Position numbers and translations under genes: made by a program. A stretch of 52,819 nucleotides of DNA. It comes from Perkinsus olseni (Eukaryota). Each line of letters starts with the position of its first letter. The first letter of the stretch is position 1. The DNA lies in assembly GCA_013115125.1 (NCBI GenBank), contig JABANN010000210.1:1-52819 (forward strand), read 5' to 3'. Positions 1 to 49,400 of the stretch are shown in pieces. The notes beneath the pieces are model-generated. The model worked only from the letters and a program-made list of their open reading frames with translations, made no database searches and was not told the DNA's origin.

Positions 1-390
1 AAGATGCAGATGAAGTCGGTCGAAGCCTTAGAGCAGGAAGACGTGATGACTAATTCATGTATTGCTCGTTATTTAATAACGGTTATTAAGGAACGTTTCA
101 ATCTGAGACCCGAAGATGCAGGTTTTCCCCCAAGTCCAATACCAGCACAACTTCCTACGCCGATTGCTGTCAACCAGCACCTACATAGAGGAGAAGGGAT
201 GCAGCCCGCCGGGCTTCAGCTCAGCCATGTGAGTTTTTATCCGAAAAATTTCCGAAGATTTCGCGAGGGGACAATTCTAGCCGCACTTCTGCGCGATGTT
301 GTTAACTGCGGCAGTTAAACTGCCGTTTTTCATTCCAGTACATAGCGAAGAAGTTCCTTTTCTGGCGTGTCGAAGGGCCGTAACTATTGC
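1..390. repeat. Dispersed repeat, probably TE-derived; 1-95 matches ~7955-8035 and 104-390 matches ~10904-11185
   Basis: Direct similarity, e.g. gaagtcggtcgaagcctt..gaagacgtgatgactaattca and ccaataccagcaca..gggcttcagctcagcc..ccgaaaaatttccgaagattt are shared. This copy carries two extra 14-bp scars (67-88, 303-324). Confidence 0.85.
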
Positions 391-450
391 AAGTTACTAT
401 TGTTAGTTGCAGATTTTCAGCACAGTTTTGAGATTGACGTGTCACGCCGC

Positions 451-652
451 CGCGATGGCATGTGAAAAAAATTCGGTGGATGAAAAACACCTGGGCGAAA
501 AGATACTGGATGAAATAGAACTGGGTGAAATGAGAATTTGCATTTTTGGGCTCTCTTTGATGGATGAAATGAGCCGGATGAACTTGCACTGGATGGAATG
601 GCCGCGGGGGAGATAAGGATGGATGAAATTATACCGGATGAGATGGGTAACA
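451..652 (-). mobile_element. 202-bp transposon-end-like repeat, copy A; terminus ...GGGTAACA at 652
   Basis: Near-identical reverse complement of 4973-5174, with many internal GGATGA(A) motifs. The TGTTA terminus fits the TGTNR ends of Ginger-type DNA transposons (family call is inference). Confidence 0.7.
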
Positions 653-1218
653 TACCACAACCAATGAACCTTCGAGCTCACCTCTTCCCCGATGACTCAC
701 TGGGAAACTGCATCCCTAAGATCGCATCAGAGAAGAGAAAGATTCTCTATCTCAGCGATAGAGATAACAAGCGCATCATTCGCGTTGACTTAGACAACTG
801 GAAGGCTTTCCGCTCGCCACCCATGCGGGGGCTGCCTCTGGTCTCCTATGAGTTTACAGTCCTCGACGGGTTGGTCTTCATTGTGAACATGTTAGGCAGC
901 AGCCTACTATGCTGGGACAGCTATGTTGGACCATCTACAGAGTGGGTGTTGATAACAAGGAGCATCCCAAGGCTTCGCGGGCTCTCTTAGGGTCTGCAAG
1001 GAAGATGCCTTTATGTCAGCAGCGCCCTCGATGAGTATCTCTATCGGGTGGTACTGTATGAAGGGTTCAAAGTGGAGAAGATATGTTACGTCGGTCGAGC
1101 CCAACAGCTGCGCTACAGTCCTCGTAGAGGCCTAGTCGCCCTAGTCAATACATATTTTAATAGAGTTGAGACGTGGCAGGAGACTTGCTGGGTCACGTCT
1201 ACTCGGCAGAGTGCCTAA
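653..1218 (+). pseudogene. 5'-truncated copy of the 321-aa F-box-like/beta-propeller gene
   Basis: Translation matches the C-terminal ~60% of 15617-16582 (PQPMNLRAHLF...TSTRQSA*). In-frame TAG at 988-990; the 5' part is replaced by the 451-652 repeat. Confidence 0.85.
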
Positions 1219-1628
1219 CGTCTTTTGTGTCAACATTTCTGGTACTGTTCTTCGTATTATCGTGTCCTAATGCACTCTGTCATTTTCCGATGGAAAAACC
1301 TGTTGAGTTACGATGTCTCATACATCGATGAGGAGTACGGATGTCGAAGCACTCGAATGGCAAACAGAGGAATGCACCAACTGGACTCTGTGAAGCTCAA
1401 GCCTTCGGGAATATGAGAGGCGCGTTATACATAGTTGTATGCAGATAGAATGTCAAGATTCCGCTACCCATCGGCCGCTCGTTGAGCGGCCTCGAGTTCC
1501 CAATGGTTTATAGTATCCCATGACATTCAGCACAACAACAGTATCACAATACATGAACATCGACAACATAACATGGCGATTCACGCGGTTCATACCTCTA
1601 CCACGGCTACTCATACCACGACTTTAAC

Positions 1629-2437
1629 TTATTTATACCCCTCATATTTGTCTAACCCCGGGTCAAGCATGAACTGGTAGAGCCACGGCATTCTTCCTTC
1701 GTTCTTAAACGGACCGCAAGGGTTATTTTCGATGTATTCGGCGACCTTTGAGCAAGTCTCCTCCGTCACACCAGCTTCAAGTATTGCTTCAACGGGCTCG
1801 AACAGAGAGGAGAGAGGATACTTTGCAGCCAGCTCTTTGCTGATATCGTACTTCTTCGTTGCCTCCGAGATCGCCGCTCCTCTTCCTTCGAGAGGCCATT
1901 CATTGTAATGGTAGGTGGAAAATTGGATTTCATTGGAGTCCCTGAGATACACGGCAATTGGTTGGTGAAAGGGACCGCACATGAGCACCTAAAGAAGCTC
2001 ATGAAGGAGTCTCACCTGTAAGTAATCTCTTGTCTAAAACTTCCATCCTTGTCCTCGCCCGGCTTTTCGACCTTTATCGTGTTTGAATCCTCGGTCGATA
2101 TCTCAACTTCCACGCTCAAGCCCTCGTATTCAATAGTGCAGGTGTCGATGCTGCCGGTGACTTCTGTGTGAGCACACAAATGCATTTCCACAACGTCCGA
2201 ATAGACACTAATATTCGGTCTGAGCAAGCTGACCTGAAGACACGTCACGTGAGTCTCATACCGCTCGACCACAATAGTAGGGTGGCCCTACTAGAGCCTG
2301 GGTTCTTGCACGTCTCTTACTCTTTTTCTCTTAGCTTGGGAGGGGTGAGCCTTCAAAGCCGTTACCGAGACCATAACCGATATGAATGGCAAAAGGCGAT
2401 GAGGGGAGAAAGCGACGGCCATGGCCGCGGCCATTGC
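1629..2437 (-). CDS. Multi-exon hypothetical secreted protein, possibly disrupted
   Basis: Signal-peptide-like exon (LLPFISVMVSVTALKA), then a GTAAGA..TAG intron and protein-like ORFs 2012-2272 and 1629-1988 separated by GTGAGA..TTTAG. That last junction does not obviously keep frame. 5' remnants recur at ~17100-17240 and ~43930-44045. Confidence 0.5.
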
Positions 2438-4307
2438 GCAGGAACGATCAGTAGAGAAAATCGCAACTGGAGAAAACGGAACCAGTGTCTTCAACAGTGG
2501 GCTTGACGAGGAGCCTCCTCCGAGGGGGTTCAGAGGAGATTAGCTGAAGGAAGCTCCAAATCCATGAGAACGTCATCGAAGCCTGTCGAAGAAAGTCTTG
2601 TGGCAGTGAGACCGTGATCTGTGCTGCGTTCGTTGTAATTTAGGCCGTCGATTGTCGCTGACAGCACCGAGGCCTAACTTCTCCCCCAACCTCAGCAGCC
2701 GGCGACCCTGTGTATTGGGCTGACTATGTCCTCATACGGTTCCTTTAACAACCAGGAGTGTTACCACCAGGGATGCAGTCGATGCGCTATGCGTCGGAGA
2801 CGGCACCACAAGGCCGAAGATCGGCACTACCTCACCGCACTTGAGTCCTACAGTAACACGGGAAGAATTCAATCTGAGAGCCGCAGACCTTGAAGGATGC
2901 TCGTTGGATGATTCCACGCCCTCCCGGCGAGAGCTACAGCCTGTAGAGCTAGCGAGAGGCTCCTGCTTGCTGTAGAGCTAGTACAGACATTCATATTGGT
3001 AAGTAGCGGTAACGGAAATCAAAGACAGATGCACGAGGCGACAGCGGAAAAAATTAGGGCTCGAAAGAGCCCGAAGGAGGGGAAAGCTGGAAGACCGCGA
3101 GAGCGCCCGAAGGCTCGCAAGAAGGCAAGAATGTCATACCAGTAGTGGAGCAACACCATCAGTATCAGCATCGTCAGCACCAATGATGGTGCTGAACCAT
3201 TGGTTCATCATTATGTTGCCATCTGACCCAGGGTCCCTCAGGAGCTGTGGGAATTACCTCAAGAGTCTCTTAGCGTAACCTTCATACCTCCTGAGCGGCG
3301 AGACAATGCGAATATTATCATAAGATGGGTATCACCGAGTCCATTTAGGTAGTTTCGAAAATACAGGGGAGAAGGAAATTTTCCAAGAAAGCATCTTCAG
3401 GGGTCTGCTAGCCCTGGGAAACAGTTCGGGGATTTGCCTGCTTCCTCGGGTTCCGAGAGGGGCTACCGCTTTGCCCGTTCCTCCCGCAATACAGAGATCT
3501 CCCGTGTTGCATTTCGCTGACTGTCACGCGCGGGCGGTCTGACGCTTATGGGAGTACTCATGCCCCCCCCCACGCCGCAATATATACTGTACATGAGCCT
3601 ATAGCTCGGCCCCCCTTCCTTTTTTATGACGCCTCGTTATGCGGCACGCGTCACGGTGGCACGTGCTTTAAGCACGGTGCTTAAGAAGCGGTTGACAGAC
3701 GAGACGGATGGTTCATGAAATGCACAGTCTTTTCCATAACTCGTATTAGCTCAACTAGCCCTTTCCTATCATCTTCCGATGGACGCTCAGTCCTGTAATG
3801 TAAGCGGTGCTATTCCGGCACCCACTACTCGCGATGGGGTTGAGTTACAAGCGGTGAACGGAAGGTTTGAGGTTCTGCCCTTCTCCCTTTGATTTTGTCT
3901 GATACCCTACACGAAACCTGTGTAGTGTAGAGTGGTGCAAACATTGGTCCGTGACGCGCTCGCCCAGGTGGCTAGTGACTCCTAGCTATACCTTAGCTCC
4001 TACTGACATAGTCTGTATTCTGTCGTCGCCTGCCCGTTGTAGGGATCAGCGGGGTCAGTCATTGTACGTGTGTATCTGTTAGTTTGGTGAACGTGCTGGC
4101 TCAATTTGCCCACCCTCTGCCACCCGGGTAGTTTTACTGTCTGCATCTGGACGTGCAATCCACAGCTGTCGGTGGATGGCAGTCCGATGGCCCAGATTTG
4201 ATCGGCAAGGCGGGACGAGTCGAGTTGACGAGGTTTGCACTTCACTCAATCATTCGACGCCCTATAAGGAGCGAGAGCAGTTCACGGTGAAGTTCATCCC
4301 CATTAAG

Positions 4308-4972
4308 ATGTCGCCGGCCAAGTCCATCATTATCACTACTGCAGCGGCAATGGTTGTCAATTTAGCTCCTCTCGGTGAGGCAATTGAGGCGGCCGCGTCG
4401 GTGAACCCCCTCCATCTTGAAGAAGTAACCCGCTTCTCTGAGCAGTCCCTTCTTCACAGCGAGGGGGACTTTCTTTAAGAATCCTTCAGGACTTCCCTTC
4501 ACTGCTCGACATGAGCCTCAGGACCGACGGAGATGGTGTGACTTGTTACTACAGCAACGAGAAGACCATGGATGAAGACCCAAAATCATTGAATTTTCGC
4601 CTTGAGCGGAGCACCGAAGACAAGCGAAGACAGACTTTATAACCTGTCCTAAGGGGCAGAAACATTACGGATTCCGAATAGAATTGTAAGTCATCTCCCT
4701 GTCCTTTTGGTTCCTTTCTTATTGATCTCTCTGTGTTGTAGTGGCTTCGATTCCAACGTTCTCAAGAGCTTCTACAGCAACTTCCCACAATTCAACTACC
4801 GCGAAGCAAAACAGCTCTACAAGTTTGAGGATCCTCCGGAACCAACTGATGTGGATCCGTTCCGGAATATCAGTGGGTCAACTTGCAGCCGCGTATTGGA
4901 AGGCGTGAGCTCAGCTGCGAAAGGAATGGATAAACCAGGCGGAAGCTCGGACGGATGGATAACTCAGGACGG
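4308..4972 (+). pseudogene. 3'-truncated paralog of the secreted gene at 18356-19295
   Basis: MSPAKSIIITTAAAMVVNLAPLGEA... and GFDSNVLKSFYSNFP...WITQD match the paralog; cut at 4972 by the TGTTACCC repeat. Confidence 0.75.
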
Positions 4973-5174
4973 TGTTACCCATCTCATCCGGTATAATTTC
5001 ATCCACCCTTATCTCCCCCGCGGCCATTCCATCCAGTGCAAGTTCATCCGGCTCATTTCATCCATCAAAGAGAGCCCAAAAATGCAAATTCTCATTTCAC
5101 CCAGTTCTATTTCATCCAGTATCTTTTCGCCCAGGTGTTTTTCATCCACCGAATTTTTTTCACATGTCATCGCG
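4973..5174 (+). mobile_element. 202-bp transposon-end-like repeat, copy B; starts TGTTACCC
   Basis: Inverted copy of 451-652 with TCATCC motif arrays; truncates a gene on each side. Confidence 0.7.
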
Positions 5175-5177
5175 AAG

Positions 5178-5722
5178 CGGCTTCTGCTATCAGCCCGGAC
5201 GCTTCCCTCGAGCCTGTGAAGTGCACCGACTATCCACTTACGACTTGCCAAGACGTTTGCGACCGTCTCGTCGGGTGCAAGGACTCTGCGTGAACCTCCT
5301 ACTGCAAATCGTGGCAAGACCCTCCTATTTGCTTCGGCATACTGAAGATGTATGATGGGAGTCTGTGCCATCAGTCGGACCCCAACTGTACCGGTGAGCC
5401 TTTCGAGTGTCACTTCGCCATGGGTCCGGTCCAACCGACAGTCCCCAACAAGCCCTCGACCATGCCTCTCCTCCCTGTGTATAACAGGACTACTCCCGCC
5501 AAGGCAATGCCTGGCGGAAGCCCGGGACAAGGTCAACCCTCCATGCCTCCAGTCAGTGGCTACTCGACCGTCAAGATTGAGCCCGCTGTTGCTAATATCT
5601 ACGTGCCAACTGCTGCTGCCGGTACTGGCGCTCCGACTTGGACGACCGCGAGTGCCTCTAATGTGACCAACACTACCGCGGCGCCAGGAGGTGGCTTCTT
5701 CAGCTGGTTCGGCTTCCGTTGA
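5178..5722 (+). pseudogene. Cys-rich secreted-family paralog with Pro/Thr-rich tail; 5'-truncated, premature stop
   Basis: ...LEPVKC..TCQDVCDRLVGCKDSA*TSYCKSWQDPPICFGILKMYDGSLC... aligns with TCQDVCNEMPQCRDSKWGSYCKTWQKPQVCFGII. TGA at 5291-5293 replaces a Trp codon. Confidence 0.8.
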
Positions 5723-6084: not shown

Positions 6085-7295
6085 CTAGGGCCTCGCATGC
6101 TTGTAACTCGCCCAGGAGTGTAACCTTCCCCATGCCCAGAATGCCGGGGTGAATGAGGCTTCTCGGGACATAGGGAATCTGAACTCTTGATCACCCTGCC
6201 TAAGCTGCCATAGCAAGGGACTCTTACCAACGTCGATCTCTCTTCTCCCGTCAGCAAGACCGTCGTCACTGGCATCGGTCACTATGCACAGCTCGTGCTT
6301 CATCCCGCCCTTGCCGCTGTGCTTCGGCCGCCTCACACCCAGCACGCACAGCAGCGGCGGCCCTTCCGGGGTCGGTATCTGAGGAAAAATTTCAACCCAC
6401 GAGTCAGCACTCCAATTTCGATGGCCATACCGAAGGAAGATCTTCCACAAGTGATCTCTTAGCAGGCTGACTAACAGCAGTGACCTGCCGCTGCAGCCCC
6501 GCCAGCTGAACTACGGGAGTGAAAGTTGATGACAAGTCGTACACCGAAACCTGAGAGAACGCACACACTCAACGCTCCGACTCGGAGCCTCCGAGAACGC
6601 CGGGAAAACGAGGACCTCTTACAAAACCGCTCTCGTCTGTGAAGCACCATGCAGTGAATGTGGATGCCGAGAAGGCGACGTGTGAGCAGGGAAGTCCATG
6701 GCCGCCGAGACCCGTGACTGAGGGAATACGCATGAACTACAGCTTAGTAGTGTGGCTATTCGAGACGGGGTTCAAAGATACCGACTCGACGAGAGTTGAT
6801 CCCTAATGAGAATCTATGGCGTACTCATGCACGGCGCGTGATGATATGAGATACCGGTAGGTAATAAGCAGCAGAGACAGCAGGTTGCCACTGTGGGGCA
6901 CCAGAAGGCATTGCTGGTCGGAAAGGGGCACCTACCCAATGGGCTGCCTGGCCGCCGTACGTCGAAGAGGGTAGCGCTATCTGACGCCGTCCCCACTGCC
7001 ACTATGTGGCCTTTCTGGGCGATGGTGCGCGGCATTGGGGGCGCCGATAGTGTACCGATGACCATTGACCTCTCTGAGGAGCGAGGAATATAGCATGGGA
7101 ACGACCCCGGTTCGAACCCCAGCACCTCCTATTCGGGCATCCCAAGCGGCCACTGCGGAGTCTCCCGTAGTACCGACTAAGAACGCAGGGGTGGTAACAC
7201 GATCGAGAGCAACGAGGCCTCCGCTTTCCCATGGCAGGTCCCATGAAGCCATTAACTACGATAAAATTGGTATGAGCAGCTGCACGCATGCACAA
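6085..7295 (-). CDS. Fragments of a possible WD40-like multi-exon gene or pseudogene
   Basis: Peptides FLVGTTGDSAVAAWDAR and IVAVGTASDSATLFDVRRP resemble WD40 repeat ends; exon structure not resolved. Confidence 0.35.
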
Positions 7296-9606
7296 GCACG
7301 GTTAACCTCTCTTGTCTCGAGGTCGAAGACATCCATGCTCCCCAAGCACTGCGGGAAGCACCCCGGCAGACCAGAACTCCGTCCGACGACCACTTGACGA
7401 TCCGGTATGTCCATCGACAGGCCGGCCAGCCAGGAGCTTCTCTCCTGATGAGGAACTCAGTGGGCGAAGGGAGTCCTCAGCATTCTCAGCACCTCCCGAC
7501 AGCCCGATCACTACTTGTCAAGTATCTCTTACTCACTATGGCATTACACAAGTACGAAAGATACTCGATGATGGGACCACTACGTAAAAGGAGGCCCTCG
7601 AGTTACCCGGTGCTCCGTTCGACCGAGGGGAACCCTTCCCAGTAGGTCCAGATTCGGGTCATGGAGGTCTCGCCAGAACAGCGCACCATCCCCTGACCGA
7701 CAAGGTGACCCGACACGATCGGTTAAGAGTGGTACCAGCATGAATGAGGAGGTCCTGGGCGGAGGATGAGTTCATCGGCGGTATGTCCAACAGCTCACAC
7801 TGCCTCTTGCACGGCTTCGACGTCGACGCCGCACGCTTACCTGCTCCGGTACGGAATCGTTACGGATGCAGAAAATACAGTCCTAAGCACGCATGCTTCG
7901 ACGGAGGAAGTGTCCGAGAACTTGCGACTGGGGCGATGACCGCGAGGATGGAGAAAGATGCTGAAGAAGTCGGTCGAAGCCTTGGTGCGGAAGACGTGAT
8001 GACTAATTCATTTATTGCTCGTTATGAAGGACAGTTTTAATCGAGCACGCATCCGTTATGAAACCGGTTGGCAATGTAATTGTAGCATAAATTGGAGTAC
8101 AGCTATCCCACCTCCGTCTATCTGGAAGACGTGTATCTCAGAGTTCCCCACCGTACAAGCTACGATAGACTCGCTGTGGCGGATGCAGCCGATGCCTTCA
8201 CTCAATGGACTGATCACCAAGGACTGCGGTGACCCTACCCGAGGCCCAGCCTAGTACCTCTCAAAGCTGCCGCTCTTGCCCAAGTTGATTGCCATCGTTC
8301 GGGTTGGCCGGGGCTGGCCAGTGGCAGAGAGGGCGATGAAGCCTTCGCTGGAGCTTCCGCCACTCCCCAGGGGCAGCAGCTCCCCTCCATCTGGCGGGTG
8401 GGGATCATTCTGACCGCTTGCTGAGAGCGAGCACACCATTCTCTGGGCAGGGGAGATAATTTCGGTTGTTCCACCATTTCTCGAACGTGTTACTGGATGG
8501 CGTTCCCCTCGCCTTCAAATCGCTTCTACGAATCAGAGAGTCATCAGAGAGACGATCAAAGACGAACCCTCGAACCAAGCCGTAGAGGTACCGTAGTGAA
8601 ACGGTCACTTTTTCGTATGACTGAGGGCCGCCATCGTTGCCTCACTTGCAGTCTTCCTCGATCCTCTATAATGGTCCATAACCGCTCCCACCGCTACAGC
8701 ATGAGCAAAGACGGTCGCCTTCGTGAGGTCCCTGAACTGCGAGGAGGAGGAGAGCGTAGAAGACTCGACCCAACCTTCAGCGGACGAGCGTCAACCAAGT
8801 TCCACATTCCTTCCAGCTTGGGTTGCGAATTTCCGCCCAGTTACGGAAGCTACGTATGCAACTTGCCGCAGATCGCGAATTATTCCCTCCGAGAAATTGA
8901 GATTCAATCGCGATAGTCTCTCCAGGCTACCACCACCAGCGCGGCCGTGCTCACTCGTTGCAGCTCCCAAGGTATCGTCCCCATCGTTGGTGCGGTGCTT
9001 CCCCCTCGCTGATCGGCCTGGTCAGTCGGCCAGAATCTCTCCATCATAATCATCATGACGCGAGGGTCCAGCATGCCGCTACCTGAGCACTGTTATGAGC
9101 TGATCAGCCTCCAGGCGTGGCGGTGGAGAGACGCTCTCGGTGTTGAGATCCACTCTAGCTCATCCGGCAGATAATTGAACTTCGTACGGGATCTATGATC
9201 ATTGCCTCGGTGTTTCTCGCGTCTTGCTTCTCTTCATGCACGTTTGCGAACAAATCGGACGTTTTTACCCGGGCTAAAACGACGTCAGCCTCCCGTCCGA
9301 TGCAGCATGATCAGTTTAGCGTGTTCCTCAAGCCTCCTAAGCCCTCGCGAGGCCATGGCCTTCTCCACTAGAGATGCCCTTTTGGTCGCTATGAGGGTTT
9401 ACACGACAGCACGATATTTTTTATGCTACCACCGCGTTATCAACCACATTTTCTACTCGAATCGCCTCCCTCTGTAATAAGGATCCACATCCATTCGACC
9501 CGCGTGGGTGCGTTGATCGTACCCTCCCTAGTCGAATGAATACCGATTGGGGTGGTATGAGCATTTCAGAACGCCCTACCTCCGCCTTCCCCTCCCTCAT
9601 TTTCCT

Positions 9607-10628
9607 TCATGCCGGTGTATCTACGAACAGGAACTTCAAAAGCATGGTGAAGCTTCGCGCTTCGGCATTAACATGGCTCGGACAGGGTACCCAGGAATGA
9701 AATATGTGTTTCGAAACGTGTGGTAGTCGAACGATGATCGATCTACCCGGTAGCCGGTACCCACGCGCAGACAAAAGCTGCGAAGCCTTGTAAACTATGC
9801 CCTCTCGTGACTTCGTACGCGTGAACATTACATTACTCCGCACCCCACCCTCCCCCTGTGACGATAGTGCGAAGAGATGCCTCGCCCTGGTCTTTCTCAC
9901 TTAGAGCTTGCCAGGGCCACTGCGGTATGCAGGACCTCCACAGGGCTCAAGAAGGACATTATCGTCACCCAGGCATCGGGGCACATAGCCGCCATAGCAC
10001 ACTCCAACGTAGTCGCGACTTGGGATGCCGCTACGTTGGCGCTGCTGAGGTAGGACCGGGAGGACAGGGAAGGGGGACCTGAGGTGATGAAGTCGCCGGT
10101 GGACATGGCCTGACTACAGGCAACGTTTTGTACTGTTCCCCACTCATCGAAGATTGCCAGCTCAGTTGGAGGCCACTTCCACATACTGGAAAGCGGTACT
10201 TATAATTCCCCGAACAAGCGTAGTTACAAAAGCGTGCTAAGGATGGCCGCACCAGTAAAGTCTCCTCATCCCAGTGCTCGAATCCAGCCATTACGTCCGT
10301 TGGGGCACTCCGGCGTCACAGAGCTTCCCATTCTCGCATCCCTCATGTGCGGCTGTCGACGAGCTTCTCGCCGCGACGTGAACAATGTGGTGAAGTCACT
10401 CCACAGGGCCGCGCTGGACTCTCCTGATCGGTGGTGATCGGAGAGGACCTCTACTGGTCCGTGCACTACTACCGCCGTCGCGCGCCCAAACAATCTTCTT
10501 ATCATACTCCACAAAACTGATACTCGGCGAGTCCTCTGCGCTGCTCGTAAAATACTCACCCAGAGGGCGCCTGAGACCGAGGCGGCCGATAAAAAGACGT
10601 TGACGCTGGGAATGTAGCATAAAATCAC
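9607..10628 (-). CDS. F-box-like hypothetical gene (interrupted by introns or frameshifts)
   Basis: F-box-like segments CPDAWVTIMSFLSPVEVLHTAVAL and ILCYIPSVNVFLSAASVSGALW lie in different frames. Confidence 0.35.
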
Positions 10629-12630: not shown

Positions 12631-13038
12631 CTAACAGTAATAGGGTTCACCTTCACAGTCATCATCGGTGGGAGCGAAGCAGAGCATGTCGTCGTCCTTC
12701 TTGATAATGCCGAAGCAGACCTGAGGTTTCTGCCAGGTCTTGCAGTACGAGCCCCATTTAGAATCGCGGCACTGAGGCATCTCATTGCAGACATCTTGGC
12801 AAGTAGGCTGAGGCTCCGGGCAGGCGACTGGCTCGAGGGTATAATCATCACAGGAATCCTGCTGAGTCGGCTGGAAGCAGTAACCATCATCCTTATGGTA
12901 GAGGCCGAAGCAGACACCATTGCCCTTGCAGTAGGAACCATACTTCGAGTCAGCACACGCGGCATGACCATCGCAGATATCCTGACAATACTCAGCAGCA
13001 GCCACAATCAGAGTGGTGACAGCGAAGACGAATTTCAT
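12631..13038 (-). CDS. Small secreted Cys-rich protein (135 aa) with two CxxxC..C..SYCK..CFG modules
   Basis: Intact ORF with signal peptide MKFVFAVTTLIVAAA and duplicated Cys module; near-identical paralogs at 47613 and 49918. Confidence 0.9.
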   Translation of the reverse strand: MKFVFAVTTLIVAAAEYCQDICDGHAACADSKYGSYCKGNGVCFGLYHKDDGYCFQPTQQDSCDDYTLEPVACPEPQPTCQDVCNEMPQCRDSKWGSYCKTWQKPQVCFGIIKKDDDMLCFAPTDDDCEGEPYYC

Positions 13039-13433
13039 GAGGATAGAGGTAAAGTCAACTGGCAGAGAGCGTTTAACACACTACGATAAATCGAACTACA
13101 AGTAACTGCTGAGTAGAGATGGTATTGAAGGCGCTTATTAAATCAACTACAAATCACTATCCCATCGCTAGAGGCATCAGCGTAGATTTGAAGTTTGGCC
13201 TGAGCGAATCAAGTGCTCATCGTGAGCTCACATGCTACCAGAAGCTAATTGGGCACTCAACGCAGAGACGAGAAGTTATTCACGTTAGGGAGAGCTCACA
13301 GTTGAATTCATTACTGACTGACTAGGAATGAGAGCAGCCGAAATAATAGGGCAAGCCTATGCCCAATCAGAGTGCTAAGTTTCACTCATCTACGTGGGAC
13401 ACTACGGACATTACGAGAGAGGAGATACGACGC

Positions 13434-19944: not shown

Positions 19945-20036
19945 TGCCTTACGCCAGGCTGGCGTAAGGCAAGCGAAACGGGAGCTGCTGGCGTCGCCAG
20001 CAGCTCCCGTTTCGCTTGGCTTAGCCAAGTTGGCTA
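19945..20036. repeat. Cluster of three abutting perfect palindromes with 1-nt centres
   Basis: 19945-19971 (13-bp arms), 19970-20018 (24-bp arms), 20022-20036 (7-bp arms). Confidence 0.95.
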
Positions 20037-32740: not shown

Positions 32741-32882
32741 CAATGGAGCTGCGCTCATACTAGCTTCGCATTATCACTCCATTCTCTCGACTCCTCCTTT
32801 TCTATCTGCTCTATTTTGTTCACTATGAGCCCAGTCTACTTATGTTGTGTTCAACAAGTTCTATACTACAGCTACACCTACT
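32741..32882. repeat. Inverted partner of 23058-23190
   Basis: Reverse-complement similarity with small indels. Confidence 0.85.
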
Positions 32883-35790: not shown

Positions 35791-35814
35791 CGTTTGCATT
35801 GAAACATGAATTGA

Positions 35815-40049: not shown

Positions 40050-41354
40050 GTGATGGTCGTCAACACAGTGAAAGGAATGATGATCCTCTCTTTGGCGAGC
40101 CCGGCTCTGACCTATACAGCCATCGAGGCGGCGACGTATCTGTCAGCGATATCCCTAGAAGCCCTACGCGACGGTTTCACGCTCGATATCGAAGATCTTG
40201 TCCCTCCTCTGAAGCTTCTTTACAAGGGACCACAAAAGTCCGGAATTTTCCTGGACGTCGGTGCTCATCTGGGAAACAGCACAAAAACAATGCTGGGTGA
40301 TTTAGACTCGGCCTTAGAGGCTCTCGTGCATCGCAACCTTCTGCCACAGGCGCCGGACGCGACAACCGTCGTGGTAGCGTTCGAGGCGCTTCCTTGGATC
40401 TGCAACGTACTCGAGCGGAAGGCTGAGATGTTTGGCTGGCAGCTGCTCCAACCAGTTCACATCGAGTGTGCTGCGGTGGCAAAGTCTGCAGGAAAGGCGA
40501 CATTTTACTTCAACAATCCCTACGGCCCGACGGCCTCCATACTCCCGAAGCAAACAACGAGTTACTTGAAAAATGTTACAGTACCTACAAGACGCGTCAA
40601 AGATACTCTCGAGGAGTTCGACTACGCGGACCTTCCCGTATTCCTCATGAAAGTTGATACCGAGGGTATGGACGGGTTGATCGTTGAGGAGACTCTCGGA
40701 GATGGTATCAGACCTAGGATCATCATCTTCGAATACAGCCGGATGTGGATGAGTGACGCCGTGAGCATCCCCCTCGGCGATTTCTCCGACCGAATACAGC
40801 GGGAGTACGGCTACTACTGCTTCGCAGCGACAAGATTGGGCGTGTGGGCACCTCTGTGGGGCCTGTGGTACACCGACCTCATAGACGGGGTCTATTCGTA
40901 TGGGAATGTCGTATGCTTCATCTGCTCCGACGTGATCGCAGACTTCTTGTCGGGTCAGATTCACGACCCTGCTGCTCGTGTTTTCGTCGTGAGCGATTTT
41001 CTGAGAGAGTGCGGCTTGCCGAGCCGCGATCCTGAAAGCCTGTACACCGAGTTGGATCGGATATATTGGGGCGCCCTCAACGGCACAGCTTCCTTGGAGT
41101 GGCACATGGCATCGCTAGCTACCTATCGTGGGGACTTCGCGACTGCCTACAGATGGTCAGACAGCGCTGCTTTGAAGGGCCAGTTCGACGCCGAGTTTCT
41201 TATCGGTCTGCAGACGTATTTCGGCGTGAATCGGCGGGGCGTGGGCAATCGAGAGCGAGGCATCGAGTGGTTGAAGAGGGCATCTCGGAAGGGCCATGGT
41301 GGGGCTGCATGGTTCTTGAGTAGAATAGGATACTCATTGAAGCATGATTATTGA
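40050..41354 (+). CDS. FkbM-family (Methyltransf_21) SAM methyltransferase with C-terminal Sel1-like repeat and N-terminal signal
   Basis: FLDVGAHLG, VVAFEALP, LMKVDTEGMD, IIIFEY. Sel1-like AEFLIGLQTYFGV..NRERGIEWLKRASRKGH. Intronless. Confidence 0.85.
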   Translation: MMVVNTVKGMMILSLASPALTYTAIEAATYLSAISLEALRDGFTLDIEDLVPPLKLLYKGPQKSGIFLDVGAHLGNSTKTMLGDLDSALEALVHRNLLPQAPDATTVVVAFEALPWICNVLERKAEMFGWQLLQPVHIECAAVAKSAGKATFYFNNPYGPTASILPKQTTSYLKNVTVPTRRVKDTLEEFDYADLPVFLMKVDTEGMDGLIVEETLGDGIRPRIIIFEYSRMWMSDAVSIPLGDFSDRIQREYGYYCFAATRLGVWAPLWGLWYTDLIDGVYSYGNVVCFICSDVIADFLSGQIHDPAARVFVVSDFLRECGLPSRDPESLYTELDRIYWGALNGTASLEWHMASLATYRGDFATAYRWSDSAALKGQFDAEFLIGLQTYFGVNRRGVGNRERGIEWLKRASRKGHGGAAWFLSRIGYSLKHDY

Positions 41355-41930
41355 AGTCAATTCATTCGGATGGCCTTTGCGTTATATATTCGGGAAGCTC
41401 GCAGGTAAACAAGCTGAGCACTTGCCGCAAGTTGAGCTCATATCCGTCGGAGACGAGGGTGACCCTCGCAGGGTCTGATTGGAAAGTCATCAAAAGATCT
41501 TCTTGCCCTCATCGTCAGTAGAGAGTCCATGACCCGACGAAGATTTCTCCAGTGGTGCAGCGCCGCTGCCGCGGCAGGAGCGCCATATCAGCGTCGAAAG
41601 TATTGTCAATGCTCTCCCGGAGTCTGACCAAAAGTCTGCAAATTGTCTGTATTTCGGGGGTCTCTTCTGACCTACCCATTGTTATTACCAAACTGGTGAT
41701 ACTAGTGACTATCAGCGGCCGTCGCCGTCCATCGGAAGTTCGCGTCAGTAGTGAATAGACCCAGTATGCGAGAGACTTTCTTGTACGTCTGTTGAAGAGA
41801 AATGTGCGCTCATCGGGCCTCAGTGAGGCCGCCTTACTAAACGCAACAAGAGAGAAGCAGTAGACAACAACATCATGCTGAATATAATGACGATTTCACT
41901 CGTTATTCACGTCTCGTTCTCATTCACATA

Positions 41931-42767
41931 TCAGAACCCAAACTTGTGTAGAAAGGCTCCGAAAACACCTTCGCCAGAAATACGGGGAAATTCATTCACA
42001 TTCGCAGTGGTTGTGAAGCGCCACTCTTTGCTCCTAATTTTCTTGATTGTAGTCTCGATTGTGCCGTTCGTCACTCTAAAGTACTCTTCACAGACATCAG
42101 TAAACGTGGGGTATTGATTTCTTATGATCTTTATCGCAGCCGAACAAGCTTCCCGCATTTCGCGTAAAGTGTTCATCCCATTGGCCATGGAAAATAGGGT
42201 ATCCTGAGTCATCCATTCGCCCGAGCTTGCGGCTGGTTTCTCCAGTTGTTTGGCAGCTGAGCTCACGCTCTCCAGTACGTGACTGCAAGTTGATGCACTG
42301 ACATTCCGGAGTGGATCCAAGCCGCTTGGTTCCGGAGGATCCTCAAACTTGTAGATCTGCCGAAGCAACAAGGGAGAAACCCGAAAGTATGAGGAAATGA
42401 CTTACAAATCGCTTCGAAAGTTGAAGTAGATCCCCCGTCGACGAGGACAGGTTATGAAGTCAGTCTCCGCCACCCTGTCCCGTTGAAGGCGAAACTTCCA
42501 TGATTTCGGAGCTTTCTCCATCGTCTTTTCGTTGCTGCAGCCACCTCCGTCGTTTCTGAGGCTCACGTCCAGCAGTGGAGGGAAGTCCTGAGGGATTCTC
42601 ATAGAGTCACTCTCGTATTGAAGAAGGGACTGCTCAGAGAATCAGCTTACGCCATTCAGATTGAGGGGGTTCACCCACGACGCTGCCTCGATTGCCTCAC
42701 CGAGAGGAGCTAAATTGACAACCATTGCCGCTGCAGTAGTGATGATGATGGACTTGGCACGCGACAT
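41931..42767 (-). pseudogene. Paralog of 18356-19295, lacking the intron-2 acceptor and the start of exon 3
   Basis: Exons 1-2 and QIYKFEDPPEP...HKFGF* are present, but the GFDSNVLK...YLEA segment is missing; splicing to the nearest CAG shifts frame. Confidence 0.6.
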
Positions 42768-42950
42768 CTTAATGGGGATGAACTGTTCCCGCTCCTCGAG
42801 TTATGTGACGTGGGACGAATCGCGTGAAGGACGCAATTCAAGGAACCACGCGAGATAGTCAACAGAACACAACGCCTGAATTGCGGTGAAACAGGCCAGA
42901 AACAGGTAACCAGAGGCCCCTCCCGAAACCCGAGGAGGCAACCAGATCTT

Positions 42951-43037
42951 CGAGCTGTTGCCCAGGGCGAACAGATCCCCGAGCTGTTGCCCAGGGCGAA
43001 CAGATCCCCGAGCTGTTGCCTAGGGCGAACAGATCCC
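42951..43037. repeat. 3 x 29-bp tandem repeat
   Basis: cgagctgttgcccagggcgaacagatccc x3; single copy at the equivalent left-arm site (~18147-18178). Confidence 0.95.
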
Positions 43038-44419
43038 CGAGTCCATTCTAATGCCATTCATTACCCAACTCTCTCATTCTCTTCTTGCCCGAGGCCATTC
43101 CATACAAATGGAAATCCAGCGACAAAGTATGCGCTCGCCTCCGACGTTAGTATGGAGACGGACAGCGTGACGCTGTGAGCGTCGTTCACATTCCGTCAAA
43201 ACGAAGACGAGCGGCTCAGTATGATGACGACGATGATGACCATTATGTTGATACTGTTGTACTGCGCAGGAGCTGTGAGCGGGAACGTGATAATAAGTCA
43301 TCATTGATTTATGATCGGCTAATACTGTACGTGTAGCTTCAATACTGGTATGATATATTCTTGCCTTCTTGTGAGTCTTCGAGCGCTCCGCCGGCCTTCC
43401 AGCTTCGAGCAATCCTTCGGGCTTTTTCGTGCCCTTACATTTTCCGTTATCGTTCCGTGTATCCGTCAATTGTCTCCGTTACTGCTCTACTGTCATTGAT
43501 ATCAGTAGCTACAGCTAACGGGAGGGGTTCGGTCGATGTCTGCGCCTCTCAGATGGAGTTCTCTGAGTTCTCCGAGATCGCATCGACTAAGTCCGTGGTG
43601 GTAGCGCTCAGGGCTCCCAATTGAGACCCTTGAGGAGGATCTCCCACCCATTAAGGGGTCCTCACATCAAAGACCTGGCCCCATATAGAGAGTCCGATAC
43701 CATTGTTCCTTGCCGACGTTTACTTTGGAACTTCATCTTCAAAAGTGGCACCATCAACGTCAATCGGAGGCCTGGGAGGCACTCAGCGCAAGTGAAGGTC
43801 CCACTGCACGCTCTACTTCGTTCGACAGGTCTAATGACAGCAAGAACTAGGACAGGCTTGGGCGTCCACATAGTTTCGGGGCTTTTCCCGTCAATCTCCG
43901 CTGCTCCTTGTTCTCAAGGAGTCTGTTGAAGAGACGGATTCAGTCTCCCCCAGTTGCGATTCTCTCTGCCGATCGTTACTGTGGATTGACCATATCTTTC
44001 TCCACTCATCGCCTCTTCCCATTCACATCGGTTATGGTCTCGGTAATCATCGATAACAAGGATCTTGTCCCTCCTCTGAAGCTCCTCTATAAAGAGGATC
44101 AGTCGCATACACTGTTCTCATTGCGATGCCCATTGCGAATAGAAAGTCACAGAAAGCTCGTTTCGCAGGGGTATTCGGGTATCACTGCTTCCGCTCGTTG
44201 ACGAAGTATGGCTACTAGCTAGGGAATGCGCTAAAGTTACTCCAGAAAGTTTGAGCTTCGCGAAGTTCAGTTCGTTCTTTTCCTTGCACGCCTCTCGAGG
44301 GCTTCTGTATTCGCACACATAGATCGGCGAGACTAAATCGCAACTCAACATCTTTGAAAATGGCAGACCATGATGATACGAAGAACAAGACAGCACCAGA
44401 AATGTTGACACAAAAGACG

Positions 44420-45385
44420 TTAGGCACTCTGCCGAGTAGACGTGACCCAGCATGTCTCCTGCCACGTCTCAACTCTATTAAAATATGTATTGACTAGGGC
44501 GACTAGGCCTCTACGAGGACTGTAGCTCAGCTGTTGGGCTTGACCGACGTAACATATCTTCTCCACTTTGAACCCTTCATACAGTACCACCCGATAGAGA
44601 TACTCATCGAGAGCGCTGCTGACGTAAAGGCATCTTCCTTGCAGACCCAAAGAGAGCCCGCGAGGCCTTGGGATGGTCCTTGTTATCAGCACCCACTCGG
44701 CAGATGGCCCAGCATAGCTGTCCCAGCATAGTACGCTGCTGTCTAGCATGTTTACAATGAAGACCAACCCGTCGAGGACTGTAAACTCATAGGAGACCAG
44801 AGGCAGCCCCCGCATGGGTGGAGAGCGGAAAGTCTTGCCGTTGTCCAAGTCAACGCGGATGATGCGCTTGTTTTCTCTATCGCTTAAATAGAGAATTTTC
44901 CCCTTCTCTGATGCGACCTTCGGGATGCATTTTCCTAGGGAGTCATCGGTGAAGAAGTGAGCTCGAAGGTCCATTGGTTGTGACATCTTATATTTCAACA
45001 AGAGCAAGCGGCTGTCGCTTAAGGACACCACCAAGCCGTCTTGGACGCCGCAGGCGCTCAGCACTTCACAATTAGTCGCCCAAGCGAATTCTGGAAACTG
45101 ACCGAGTTGACGTAACCCCACCACGTAGGGGCTCCTTGATATGATTAAATTATGATATTCAAATGATACGCTGACGGAATCACCGGAGCGAAAATAAGCC
45201 TCCGGTTGATTGGTTTTGAGGAGGGTCGGTGAGGGTGCTAGGAATGACCAGAGCTCGCTGCAGATCTCCAGAGGTAGGAGTGAAGTGAATGGCGAGGCAG
45301 CGGCGAGGCTGACAATGATGTCGAAGTTAAGTCTATTGATGCCGTCTTTCCGGCTGTACGATTGACGCGTATTAGAATCGGGCAT
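44420..45385 (-). CDS. 321-aa F-box-like/beta-propeller protein, right-arm copy
   Basis: Intact ORF of the same length and very similar to 15617-16582. Confidence 0.7.
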   Translation of the reverse strand: MPDSNTRQSYSRKDGINRLNFDIIVSLAAASPFTSLLPLEICSELWSFLAPSPTLLKTNQPEAYFRSGDSVSVSFEYHNLIISRSPYVVGLRQLGQFPEFAWATNCEVLSACGVQDGLVVSLSDSRLLLLKYKMSQPMDLRAHFFTDDSLGKCIPKVASEKGKILYLSDRENKRIIRVDLDNGKTFRSPPMRGLPLVSYEFTVLDGLVFIVNMLDSSVLCWDSYAGPSAEWVLITRTIPRPRGLSLGLQGRCLYVSSALDEYLYRVVLYEGFKVEKICYVGQAQQLSYSPRRGLVALVNTYFNRVETWQETCWVTSTRQSA

Positions 45386-46355
45386 ATGAAAACTATCTCA
45401 TACTAACATGGCATACAATATAAAGATTCTCGAGTACAACCCATGTCAAATTCATGACACGAGTAGACTATTACCGGATACAAGATTCGCGTCTCTACTA
45501 TTTTCACATTCTGGAATATCATCGACGCGCAAAAACTCTCACATACACCTGCATTGCACCACCCTGTTTGGTCTGCGGGTTAATCACCTTTGAACCACCC
45601 GGACCGGGCGACCCCGTCTACATCTCACCTGTAGCCTGCTGATAGCCTATCCCTGTCTGAGTATGATTCGTCCCCGAGCACAATTCCAAGTCCGCTCTAA
45701 CTCTGTGAAGCTCGAATGAAGTCCAATTTATAAGCTATGAAATCGTCATGCCAGTTTGTTTGTTCGGATCGTATTATGTGCCTAGTGTTGCCACTCCGCT
45801 CGAATCAACCGCTGAGGAACTGGGTTCGGCTTGCACTACCTTCGAGAGTTTGACTGGTAAGGACTGGATGTTTCCTCTAGGCAACAGAAGGTTGTTTACT
45901 CACAGGCGAGCGGTCAGGCCGGTCACGAGCGGGTTCGATATTTCAACAGTACGTCACACGGCATAACTATAAAGTCACTCAACTGTCCCTAGCTCGTTCA
46001 AATGCTCATCATTCGAGTTTCTCGATGAGCGGAATATGTGCTGAGTAGAAGACATCAGTCCGAGCATGTCGGAGAAGACCACCGCGCTTGGAAGAGAACG
46101 AGCGCGCTCACGGTTGTGTGCTCGAAACCGCAAGATTCGACAGTTTCGTTGTGCGGTCGCACCGCATCTCAATTACCTCTGCGAATGATCCGTGATTCTA
46201 TCAAGAGTGGAAAATGTGCAAGTCGGGTCCCGCCCTAAGTAGCGCTATATAGCTTAGTCGAATCGCCCTTCCACATACATGGCGACCTCACGCGATCAGT
46301 GCCGGAGTTCGCTCTGTCAGAGTCTCCGATCAGGTTTGTTTGATCGTCCACCTTA

Positions 46356-47213
46356 ATGCTGTTCAGCGCTGTCGTTGTTGTGTACTTGGTTAGTCTCGCC
46401 GAGTCCACCTATTACTGCGAAGAGTAGTGCTTCCTCACTGAAGGCTGTGAGAGTTCCTACTGCAAGGAGAACGGTGTGTGTTTCGGCCTCTACTACGATG
46501 ATGCCACTACTTGTTATCAACCGGGCGACGGTAGTGGTAACTGTGATGACGCAACACTGAGCCCTGTGATGTGCGAAGATAAGCCTCCTGTTACTACTAC
46601 TGCCTCTACTACCACGCTGTGGACTTGTTCTGACGTCTGTAATTCCCTGGTGAGTTGTCAGGAGTCTCCTAGTGGTTCATACTGCAAGGCGTGGATCTCC
46701 CCTCCAGTCTGTTTCGGTATAGTTATCAAGCCTGACGGTACCCTTTGTTATGAAGGTGTGGATGAGGGTTGCGAGGGCGAACCCTACGAGTGTGATAGCC
46801 AAACGATTACAGAATCTTCCACTGAGGCCCCTACTGATGCTCCCGCTGATGTCCCCACCGAGGGCCCTACTGAGGCTCCTGAGGTTCCCACCGAAGCTCC
46901 TACTCAGGGTCCTACTGAGGGTCCTACTGACGCCCCTACTGAGGCTCCCACTGCGGCCCCTACTGAGGCTCCTACTGATGCTCCCACCGAGGCTCCCACT
47001 GACGCCCCTACCGAAGCTCCCACTGCGGCTCCCACTGACGCCCCTACCGAAGCTCCCACTGCGGCTCCCACTGCGGATCCTACTGATGCTCCCGCCGAGG
47101 CGCCTACTGATGCTCCCACTGAGGCGCCTACTGATGCTCCCACCGAGGCGCCTACTGATGCTCCCACCGAGGCGCCTACTGATGTGCCACAATATTCGAC
47201 CATTCTTCCATAA
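46356..47213 (+). pseudogene. Cys-rich TEAP mucin paralog with premature stop
   Basis: MLFSAVVVVYLVSLAESTYYCEE*: TAG at 46425-46427 where the left copy has Tyr; shorter repeat stalk (~46820-47185). Confidence 0.85.
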
Positions 47214-47612
47214 GCGTCGTATCTCCTCTATCGTAATGTCCGTAGTATCCCACGTAGATGAGTTCAACTTAGCACTCTGATTGGGCATAGGCTTGCTCTA
47301 TTATCTCGGCTGCTCTCATTCCTAGTCAGTCAGTAATGAAAATCCAACTGTGAGCTCTCCGTAAACGTGAGTAACTTCTTGTCTCTGCGTTGAGTGCCTA
47401 ATTAACTTATGATAGCATGTGAGCTCACGATGAGCACTTGATTCGCTCAGGCCAAACTTCAAATCTACGCTGATGCCTCTAGCGATGGGATAGTGATTTG
47501 TAGTTGATTTAATAAGCGCCTTCGATACCATCTCTACTCAGCAGTTACTTGTAGTTCGATTTATCGTAGGGTCTTGAATGCTCGCTGCCAGTTGACTTTT
47601 CCTCCTTTCCTC

Positions 47613-48020
47613 ATGAAGTTCGCCTTCGCTGTCACCACTCTGATCATGGCTGCTGCCGAGTATTGTCAGGATATCTGCGATGGTCATGCCGCGTGTGCTG
47701 ACTCGAAGTATGGTTCCTACTGCAAGGGCAATGGTGTCTGCTTCGGCCTCTACCATAAGGATGATGGTTACTGCTTCCAGCCGACTGAGCAGGATTCCTG
47801 TGATGATTATACCCTCGAGCCAGTTGCCTGCCCGGAGCCTCAGCCTACTTGCCAAGATGTCTGCAATGAGATGCCACAGTGCCGCGATTCTAAATGGGGT
47901 TCGTACTGCAAGACCTGGCAGAAACCTCAAGTCTGCTTCGGCATTATCAAGAAGGATGACGACACGCTCTGCTTCGCTCCCACCGATGATGACTGTGAAG
48001 GTGAACCCTATTATTGTTAG
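47613..48020 (+). CDS. Small secreted Cys-rich protein (135 aa), right-arm copy
   Basis: MKFAFAVTTLIMAAAEYCQDICDG...EGEPYYC*. Confidence 0.9.
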   Translation: MKFAFAVTTLIMAAAEYCQDICDGHAACADSKYGSYCKGNGVCFGLYHKDDGYCFQPTEQDSCDDYTLEPVACPEPQPTCQDVCNEMPQCRDSKWGSYCKTWQKPQVCFGIIKKDDDTLCFAPTDDDCEGEPYYC

Positions 48021-48234
48021 AAACTGAATGACGACAGTAATTATTTTCGTTTCTATTTCGATGATTATTTTCGATACGAGAGCATAATATTCGCTCCCTA
48101 CCTAATAGAGTTTCGTTGAAAGTGATAACGGGTGTTTATGAATATGGACACCCATACAATCAACTTGCAAACTATTCCTCGTGATGAGTTATTGGATCAC
48201 CGAAGTCGTCGACCGATAATTCATCCTGGCAGCC

Positions 48235-49400
48235 TCAGAGGTGGCTAGTGCAATCCTTCGCCGGCTGCCAGTGAAATGTAGAGTTCCGACGATCGAAGGC
48301 TAAGGTCGCGCCGCATTCGATCCTCAGGGTGGACATGTTAGGGCTAGTTGTTTCCGCATTGTAAGATTTTACTATTCTTTCACCGACTACCCGAGGATAA
48401 GCTCTCATTTGCTTGTGCATCGAACTCTGCGTTGTCTATTATTGAGTATGACAAGTTGGTGGAGATCACCTGCCGGAGAACCACATGGGCCGCCTGCATC
48501 CACGAAAGGTAGAACAACTCCGCCTGGCCACCATGGAAGAGCGGTGAGCCAGAAACGGTTTTGACTAAACCTTCCGCCACCGGCACCATAAGCCGCTGAA
48601 AGACGACTTCGAATCGAGCCCTAAGAGTTCAACAGATCGCTCTAATGTTGATGCCGCTGGGAGTTCAAAGTCACAACTTTGTGAGAACTTACCAAGCAAT
48701 ATCATATCATCGTCGAACGACCCAGTTATCATTGATAACTTATCAAGGTGACGCAATCGCTGTCATTACACGGTCGCTACAAAGGACACAGCACTGCGTC
48801 GGCGCGTCACACGGCATAACCCATGCCCGCCTTGCCAACGTCGTAATAAGCGACGGAGCTGTTTCGTGACGGACGGTGGCGGGGCTGTTTCTTAGCGTGT
48901 CAAACGCAAACGACGTCCACTGTACGCGCTAGAGTAGCGAAGTTCGATTGACTAGCCTGCTGTGTCTAAAGGTAGTCGCAAACTCTTTTCCCTACGACCT
49001 GAGAAAGACTCGAAAATTACCTTGTGACGAGGACCTCGTCGTAGAACCGCCCTTGCCGACCTTTCGCTAGATGGCCCTCCGTCCTTGAGCACTGCCCGAA
49101 CCAGCTCGCAGACGGTAAATATTTCAGAAATAATCAGACCGTCTGATTCAGACGACGAGGAAGAGCAAGTCGAGAACAGCGAACCGCGTTGAACAAATGC
49201 TACAATTGGCAGTGGCAAAAGGCATACTTCAACCTCACAATACCGGAGGACTGCCCACCCACACTCATTCACCGCCTTCGCGACATCGAGGCGATGCACA
49301 ATGGCAGGCCACATCACCCTAGCCCAGTGAGGGGACAAGGATTCGCTGGCGCGCGTTTGCATAGGTTCGCTAGACGAGCTTCCTTGTAGTGAGTAGTAAT
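48235..49400. mobile_element. Possible decayed retroelement fragments
   Basis: Minus-strand SFDDDMILLG...VELLGL resembles RT YxDD and LG motifs; many stops. Confidence 0.25.

Follow-up and report, generated by a model that had tools for sequence, protein, structure and literature searches.

Inverted-triplication scars with an eight-base unit in a Perkinsus olseni contig: probable excision footprints of a hAT-type transposon

Elements of the hAT superfamily leave hairpins on the flanking DNA with a one-base offset, as is known from the biochemistry of Hermes, and their transposase has a DDE/RNase-H fold with an insertion domain, a BED finger and a C-terminal hAT dimerisation domain. A weak target preference of the form nTnnnnAn applies to Ac, hobo and Hermes. 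At the coding joints of V(D)J recombination, the flank hairpin made by RAG is opened off-centre, which leads to palindromic P additions. The P element has an 8-bp target-site duplication (TSD); its excision leaves 17-nt 3' overhangs of its own ends, and its footprints keep letters of the terminal inverted repeat (TIR). Perkinsus is a parasite of molluscs, and the present analysis concerns a 22-bp motif, termed the scar, which recurs along 52,819 nt of Perkinsus olseni DNA (assembly GCA_013115125.1, contig JABANN010000210.1, positions 1 to 52,819, forward strand; this whole stretch is called the window). Each scar consists of an 8-mer X without its last base, the reverse complement of X, and X without its first base, i.e. 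X[1-7]+rc(X)+X[2-8], and is probably what remains after excision of a hAT-type element. According to one account of plants, S. cerevisiae and C. albicans, Ac/Ds footprints are palindromic insertions of P nucleotides, and the base at their centre is complementary to the one beside the element (PMC5873905). For yeast, it reports palindrome arms of up to 20 nt, microhomology in 88-89% of footprints, and many footprints per site, for example 28 types among 128 Candida albicans revertants (PMC5873905). Such footprints have usually been studied at single reporter sites and are heterogeneous, with the consequence that past excisions could not be counted across a genome.

A scan of the whole window took in the motif X[1..k-1]+rc(X)+X[2..k] at every k from 4 to 12, and 20 dinucleotide-preserving shuffles served as control. 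At k=8 there were 12 perfect and eight one-mismatch scars, against shuffle means of 0 perfect and 0.05 at up to one mismatch, while k=7 gave no perfect match and three at up to one mismatch, k=9-12 gave none, and counts at k=4-6 were at chance level. An earlier sequence-only reading of this DNA had reported seven perfect and five one-mismatch scars, every one of which was found again at its position and with its letters. Its list was correct as far as it went, falling short by five perfect (6574, 18002, 23828, 24355, 49133) and three one-mismatch scars (15339, 41816, 43162). The chance expectation that it gave, approximately 2e-4 per window, is arithmetically sound, and the sharp enrichment at k=8 that it had looked for is present, the 12 perfect scars occurring at that length only. 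The geometry is as specific as the length. Only the offset pair (1,1) is enriched at k=8, other tested pairs giving no perfect match and (2,2) a single one-mismatch match; neither the mirrored form X+rc(X[2-7])+X, where the base at the centre of the palindrome belongs to the flank itself, nor the even form X+rc(X)+X had any match in the window at up to one mismatch. All 12 perfect scars have the complement of the element-adjacent base at each of their two palindrome centres. There are 46 palindromes with an odd centre and arms of at least 7 nt, of which 14 lie outside scars, and palindromes with spacers of 0, 2 or 4 nt number only 5-6.

Matches with 0, 1, 2, 3 and 4 mismatches number 12, 8, 9, 16 and 53, compared with 0, 0, 0.3, 3.0 and 30 in 10 block shuffles. 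The excess is roughly level, at approximately 8 to 13 per class up to three mismatches, as expected of a long-running process. A more general scan took X[1-7] followed by the complement of x8, the complement of x1 and X[2-8], with any distance d between the two centres. At d=7 it returned 15 matches where 0.9 were expected, 12 with palindromic arms of at least 7 nt and three chance-like, and at d=1-6 it returned 0, 1, 0, 2, 2 and 0 matches with approximately one expected each; short footprints of the plant type are not in excess.

Each scar appears to be a clean insertion of 14 bp, because paralogs and another isolate show the 8-mer in single copy. The sequence-only reading had drawn attention to such empty paralogous sites. 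That of scar 303 (11098-11105, single 8-mer) leaves a clean 14-bp gap in alignment, and so does that of scar 67 (8020-8027), where the single 8-mer differs by one base. The isolate comparison used Logan short-read contigs from runs X3, X7, X8 and X10 over a 20-kb stretch with nine scars. In X8, a divergent isolate, exactly 14 letters are missing at 23829. An X8 contig has 33 letters in place of 19931-20029, which by eye equals the window minus scar 20015 and minus a 43-bp event at 19951, and in an X8 contig covering 20406-21174 there are 14 gap letters, as an empty site at 20551 would give, the position of the gap not being shown. The reverse case also occurs: by eye, an X7 copy of a host repeat carries a one-mismatch scar on an 8-mer that is single in the window (24804-24811). 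Other contigs are without any difference from the window (X3, 20362-22920 and 24893-32782; X7, 23156-23933 and 31419-33226; X10, 31893-32489), and these span scars 20551, 23556, 23828, 26770 and 31921, i.e. five of the nine in the 20-kb stretch, among the contigs listed. Runs X3, X7 and X10 come from three studies, and therefore at most one of them can be the assembly's own source.

The window also contains an inverted segmental duplication, 12622-19800 against 41300-50337, with approximately 90% identity over 5542 aligned columns and locally 96%. Three scars are common to both arms, each copy with substitutions of its own (18002/43162, 15339/45596 and 41816/~19389), which makes them older than the duplication. 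The ages of scars are thus spread, some being common to paralogs of about 90% identity and others polymorphic. Indels relative to the paralog are also found at 17333-17354 and 19225-19239, and are degenerate.

An element with the structure that such scars call to mind is present in the window. A segment of 1549 bp (23246-24794) has a perfect 9-bp TIR, CAGGGTGGC, starting CAGGG, GGAAAAATAG-type subterminal repeats at both ends, and identical flanking 8-mers, GTATTGCA, forming a perfect 8-bp TSD. A start of the YARNG type such as CAGGG is typical of hAT ends. The segment encodes nothing recognisable and is therefore a non-autonomous element. That it is an insertion is concluded from read joints and not from the motif alone: the joints 23240>24803 (X3) and 23243>24805 (X7) belong to other copies of a high-copy host repeat, which are without approximately 1.56 kb of the window. 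A strict TSD-plus-TIR scan of the window (up to two mismatches in 14 nt) found no element; in a relaxed scan this was the sole structure of its kind. Sites resembling CAGGGTGGC elsewhere in the window number 19 at up to one mismatch, which is not above chance, and none is an element with a TSD. The 27-nt left end of the resident element had no match among metagenome contigs. Four of the 20 scars lie inside the resident element (binomial P 0.0025), and its family may be the one responsible for the scars. In the X8 copy, 23905-24295 (391 bp) of the element is missing, with no TSD or TIR at the segment ends, so that the X8 copy is probably a member of the family shortened by an internal deletion.

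Not every footprint in the window is of the standard kind, and the claim of the sequence-only reading that there is one invariant footprint does not hold strictly, since two longer variants exist. The first, at 19951-20001 (d=36, +43 bp), has 14-nt left and 25-nt right tracts that are exact reverse complements of their own flanks and overlap by CA, and it keeps the 8-mer frame of the scars. This product would be expected if one hairpin had been opened 14 nt and the other 25 nt away from the tip and the ends then joined directly, and we regard it as direct evidence that hairpin opening took place well away from the tip. The second, a candidate at 35347-35376 (d=15, +22 bp), has the X geometry with a right arm of 10 nt. 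When all scars were collapsed and the window was scanned again, one older scar appeared beneath that at 31921, a site that would have been hit twice. Taken together, the longer variants and the nested scar suggest that flank hairpins were opened at a distance from the tip.

It is likely that the scars are excision footprints of an element that makes 8-bp TSDs, leaves hairpins on its flanks and is of hAT type, and that they owe their uniformity to pairing through the duplicated target. Traits of hAT elements that are found here include an 8-bp target duplication, seen in a scar unit of 8 nt only and in the TSD of the resident element; a flank hairpin nicked one base into the flank, as the geometry of 12 of 12 perfect scars indicates; and, in one element, a short TIR with a start of the YARNG type and subterminal repeats. 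In the proposed sequence of events, the element would lie between two copies of the 8-mer X and the first nick would fall one base into each flank. On the left flank, excision would then couple x7 with the complement of x8, and on the right flank the complement of x2 with x1, giving covalently closed hairpins that host enzymes would open on the far strand, at some distance from the tip. Each opened end would be a 3' tail that starts with the complement of the element-adjacent base and goes on as its own flank in reverse complement (P nucleotides), and because both flanks end in the same 8-mer, the two tails would be mutually complementary across rc(X), the left tail entering rc(X) at one side and the right tail's complement at the opposite side. 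Annealing in register, trimming of overhangs and gap filling would always yield X[1-7]+rc(X)+X[2-8], a net gain of 14 bp.

The sequence-only reading had supposed that the hairpins anneal over the full 8 nt. This need not be so: wherever the hairpins were nicked, tails jointly exceeding 8 nt would give the same 22-mer in register. The uniform product may instead be put down to distal opening of the hairpins with a preference for pairing, tails of exactly 8 nt not being needed, and it would be the product expected from in-register annealing in microhomology-mediated joining, a route in which the junction forms where two 3' tails are already complementary and which needs resection or nicking nucleases and a gap-filling polymerase. 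Ends joined at their tips would leave longer palindromic footprints, and the +43 variant appears to show that opening at 14-25 nt occurs and that tips are occasionally joined in this way. The hairpin intermediate, its distal opening and the in-register annealing are each presumed from the form of the products.

Several observations weigh against this reading. The sequence-only reading took the paralog of scar 41454, near 19756, as a further empty site; the difference there is 23 bp and not 14, i.e. the scar plus nine unexplained bases. It had also envisaged empty, scarred and element-occupied alleles, of which the first two occur among the runs and the third was not seen at a scar site in any run. 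The 8-bp TSD is supported by one resident element only, and the relaxed scan at up to one mismatch gave one observed structure against 0.8 in shuffles; from that scan, the chance of a 9/9 TIR beside an 8-bp direct repeat is estimated at a few hundredths per window. A Pfam scan of 440 of the 463 open reading frames (ORFs) of at least 55 aa found no DNA-transposon transposase of any superfamily. It covered 15 long ORFs, 140 of 148 ORFs of at least 90 aa and 300 of 315 of 55-89 aa, and left out eight Pro/Thr (PT) repeat ORFs and 15 beyond 50.8 kb. The closest to a transposase match was DUF4096, sub-threshold at E 0.0067, and a PDB sequence search with three ORFs, one of them inside the resident element, gave nothing below E 0.8. 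Excision through flank hairpins by a hAT transposase, as the sequence-only reading had it, accordingly gains from the complemented centres, the resident element and the empty and scarred states, and finds no enzyme to go with them among the scanned ORFs; assignment to hAT rather than to another flank-hairpin superfamily is presumptive. The 19 independent target 8-mers have 50% G+C (window 52%) and no clear positional preference, their symmetrised profile being at most 0.1 bit at every position, and T at position 2 (and its mirror) is found in 14 of 38, so that the nTnnnnAn preference is not evident. Finally, an odd-centred palindrome cluster at 31818-31885, in which by eye the centres are the flank's own bases and a palindrome with 9-nt arms lies between, does not fit the scar model.

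Other explanations can be set beside the same evidence. The first accepts excision and accounts for the uniformity by supposing that Perkinsus lacks the classical form of non-homologous end joining (NHEJ), with microhomology-mediated joining as its sole end-joining route. Footprints made without microhomology (centre distance 1-6) are indeed at chance level in the window, and one survey reports that many parasitic protists are without Ku70, Ku80 and Lig4 and that such genomes rely on microhomology (PMC6635534). The presence of these three genes had been raised by the sequence-only reading as a point to check, and Table S1 of that survey lists all three as present in Perkinsus marinus ATCC 50983 (C-NHEJ sum 3), together with MRE11, RAD50 and a POLA/POLQ-group protein (PMC6635534). 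The entry concerns a sister species and draws on EggNOG orthology alone, and a listing does not imply activity. Full-text literature searches found no main-text statement on NHEJ or Ku in Perkinsus, the supplementary table being the only source. Because P. marinus is listed with Ku70, Ku80 and Lig4, absence of classical NHEJ is not the explanation of the uniformity, and this account is considered unlikely.

Somewhat less likely again is that another flank-hairpin superfamily with an 8-bp TSD, for example a Mutator-like element (MULE), made the scars. MULEs form flank hairpins and have TSDs of 8-10 bp (PMC5499845), the scanned ORFs include no hAT transposase, and a pair of 202-nt inverted repeats with GGATGAAA subterminal motifs (451-652 and 4973-5174) recalls the long TIRs of MULEs. 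However, every scar has a unit of 8 nt, and units of 9 or 10 nt do not occur; by eye, the 202-nt repeats are without a TSD; and the resident element with its 8-bp TSD has a short 9-bp TIR starting CAGGG, which fits hAT ends. Muta1 has a flank hairpin of 43+43 nt and more than 90% precise excision in yeast (PMC5499845), from which neither an odd-centred palindrome nor a dominant footprint would follow.

That the scars arose without any transposon, as template-switch products of replication or repair (small inverted triplications or quasi-palindrome mutations), is improbable. They are formally inverted triplications, no element-occupied allele was found at any scar site, and small inverted triplications born in replication are known from yeast and cancer genomes (PMC13334657). 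Those described there have units of approximately 150 bp, spacers and variable junctions, whereas the scars have a unit of exactly 8, exact 1-nt offsets in 20 of 20 and a fixed 7/8/7-nt layout with no spacer; moreover, the longer variant holds the same 8-mer frame and an element with an 8-bp TSD is present in the window. Assembly or sequencing artefacts at short palindromes can be set aside almost entirely: although some long-read library artefacts create palindromes and the assembly may itself have been built from the run that matches it best, contigs from three studies agree with the window without a single difference across five scars, diverged paralogs have scars in common with their own substitutions, a divergent isolate is without exactly 14 bp, and an artefact would not be expected to be confined to 8-mers.

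Excision footprints of a hAT-type element being preferred, the distribution of the scars bears on what they do to the genome. For 14 of the 20, another scar is no more than 540 bp away (P 0.004 relative to uniform placement; 0.023 without the genic block), and the genic 27% of the window contains only one of them (P 0.016), a depletion. The sequence-only reading had described scarring as always frameshifting and as a systematic means of gene inactivation. The first part stands, 14 bp being necessarily frameshifting. Inactivation was not seen: collapse of the scars in silico restores no long ORF in the window, the best cases going from 157 to 216 aa (18002) and from 314 to 344 aa (20551, in a retroelement). 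What the window shows is depletion of scars from genes and not the killing of genes.

Ordinary genes (TruD, a papain-type protease, WD40 and an FkbM-type methyltransferase) occupy the middle of the window, at approximately 27.2-41.4 kb, and the remainder is repeats, this unique gene block being placed between the arms of the inverted segmental duplication. The TruD ORF (27694-29202, minus strand) has 98% identity to a partial Perkinsus olseni protein and 76% to proteins of P. chesapeaki and P. marinus, which places the window in Perkinsus, nearest to P. olseni. Contigs of RNA type mark GT..AG introns 52-96 nt long, together with a poly(A) end. In X7 and X10, both runs of RNA type, the transcribed unit with the deepest coverage is at 29364-30883 on the minus strand; four introns of 53-96 nt are listed for it, its poly(A) end is at 29364, and none of its ORFs has a Pfam match. 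Scans of the window for tRNA and Rfam families gave no match. A third copy of the duplicated segment, partial and older, is at 1-5200.

Among the repeats, 20156-23208 is a 3.05-kb insertion relative to other copies, with joints present in all four runs; one of its ORFs is RNase-H-like (RVT_3) and another is for a tyrosine recombinase (Phage_integrase), which would make it an element like DIRS or Crypton, and a scar lies close to the beginning of the first ORF. The inverted repeats of 202 nt at 451-652 and 4973-5174 are 99% complementary and rich in GGATGAAA-type motifs; the 4.3 kb between them is collinear with the duplicated arms and has no Pfam match, and the whole may be a foldback or MULE-like structure. 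At 8045-10905, approximately 2.9 kb without a Pfam match lies between two blocks that adjoin in the copy at 1-290, and would be an insertion or a rearrangement. Tandem arrays of 12 and 24 nt at 13346-14606 and 46370-47340 encode the PT repeats and are open in several frames on both strands. One perfect 18-nt X+rc(X)+X unit based on a 6-mer, at 2416-2433, is GC-rich, overlaps CCATGG/CGGCCG palindromes and is probably due to chance or low complexity. Scars and related features are collected in Table 1.

Table 1. Coordinates of scars, longer footprints and the resident element in the window.
Feature	Coordinates	Remark
Scar, perfect	67-88	Paralog 8020-8027 with single 8-mer
Scar, perfect	303-324	Paralog 11098-11105 with single 8-mer
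Scar, 1 mismatch	3186-3207	Motif scan
Scar, perfect	3662-3683	Motif scan
Scar, perfect	6574-6595	Motif scan; absent from the sequence-only list
Scar, 1 mismatch	15339-15360	Common to inverted paralog 45596-45617 (2 mismatches there)
Scar, perfect	18002-18023	Common to inverted paralog 43162-43183
Non-canonical footprint, +43 bp	19951-20001	X[1-7] 19951-19957, X[2-8] 19995-20001; 14- and 25-nt tracts
Scar, perfect	20015-20036	Absent from X8 contig (by eye)
Scar, perfect	20551-20572	Near 5' end of ORF of tyrosine-recombinase retroelement
Left 8-bp TSD GTATTGCA of resident element	23238-23245	
Resident element, non-autonomous, 1549 bp	23246-24794	
Scar, 1 mismatch	23556-23577	Inside resident element; X7 contig 23156-23933 identical
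Scar, perfect	23828-23849	Inside resident element; X7 contig identical; X8 without 14 letters
Scar, perfect	24355-24376	Inside resident element
Scar, 1 mismatch	24583-24604	Inside resident element
Right 8-bp TSD GTATTGCA of resident element	24795-24802	
Empty site (single 8-mer)	24804-24811	X7 copy of repeat carries one-mismatch scar on same 8-mer
Scar, perfect	26770-26791	X3 contig 24893-32782 identical
Scar, 1 mismatch	31921-31942	Nested in older scar; identical in X3, X7 and X10 contigs
Non-canonical footprint candidate, +22 bp	35347-35376	X geometry, right palindromic arm 10 nt
Scar, 1 mismatch	41454-41475	Paralog near 19756 shorter by 23 bp
Scar, 1 mismatch	41816-41837	Common to paralog ~19389-19410
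Scar, 1 mismatch	43162-43183	Paralogous copy of scar 18002
Scar, perfect	48725-48746	Motif scan
Scar, perfect	49133-49154	Motif scan; absent from the sequence-only list
2-mismatch candidates, n=9	Starts 2277 (to 2298), 2507, 31934, 31960, 32570, 33549, 39545, 45596, 49019	In excess as a class; individually uncertain

Scars at this density imply cut-and-paste activity in Perkinsus that has been very heavy and has lasted long, in a lineage where transposons and DNA repair have barely been described. A broader proposition, for and against which we see equal weight, is that repair after excision in Perkinsus goes almost wholly to one target-templated +14-bp product, which then decays by point mutation only. 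If this were true, the genome would hold a countable and datable ledger of excisions, with at least 20 entries in the 52.8 kb of the window, or approximately 40 after subtraction of shuffles at up to three mismatches. Scars and element would themselves serve again as targets, for which the nested scar and the four scars in the 1.5-kb element speak, and excision scarring would be one main source of short insertions in the non-genic DNA of Perkinsus. A single recognisable product, with false positives at approximately 2e-4 per 50 kb, would allow excisions to be counted, dated and compared with current insertions, and would reveal from sequence alone how a non-model alveolate opens and joins DNA hairpins. 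Annotators and variant callers should recognise these 14-bp frameshifting palindromes. Literature searches found no account of such scars in Perkinsus and no genome-wide census, and reporter assays in yeast and Arabidopsis may already hold the 22-mer class.

In comparison with known systems, the P element differs in that the scars contain no common sequence. V(D)J hairpins are even-centred, with no 1-nt offset, P tracts mostly of 1-4 nt and no duplicated target template. Small inverted triplications resemble the scars in their DUP/INV/DUP arrangement, but they measure approximately 148/160/148 bp with 30-bp spacers and accompany FEN1 loss (PMC13334657), whereas those of the window measure 7/8/7 nt. 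Muta1 and the MULEs have a flank hairpin intermediate and a TSD of 8-9 bp in common with the proposed course of events, and differ in mostly precise excision in yeast and in long TIRs (PMC5499845), the window having a fixed, odd-centred footprint and a resident TIR of 9 bp. The likeness to Ac/Ds extends to the centres, the 8-bp frame and the 14- and 25-nt tracts, which match the Ac/Ds picture (PMC5873905). Two differences stand beside it. Among window footprints that keep both target copies, approximately 12-20 are one product and two differ; and the scars are natural and fixed, 20 per 52.8 kb, as opposed to the products of reporter assays. By this analogy, the scars of the window would represent Ac/Ds chemistry with an unusually uniform outcome and at high density.

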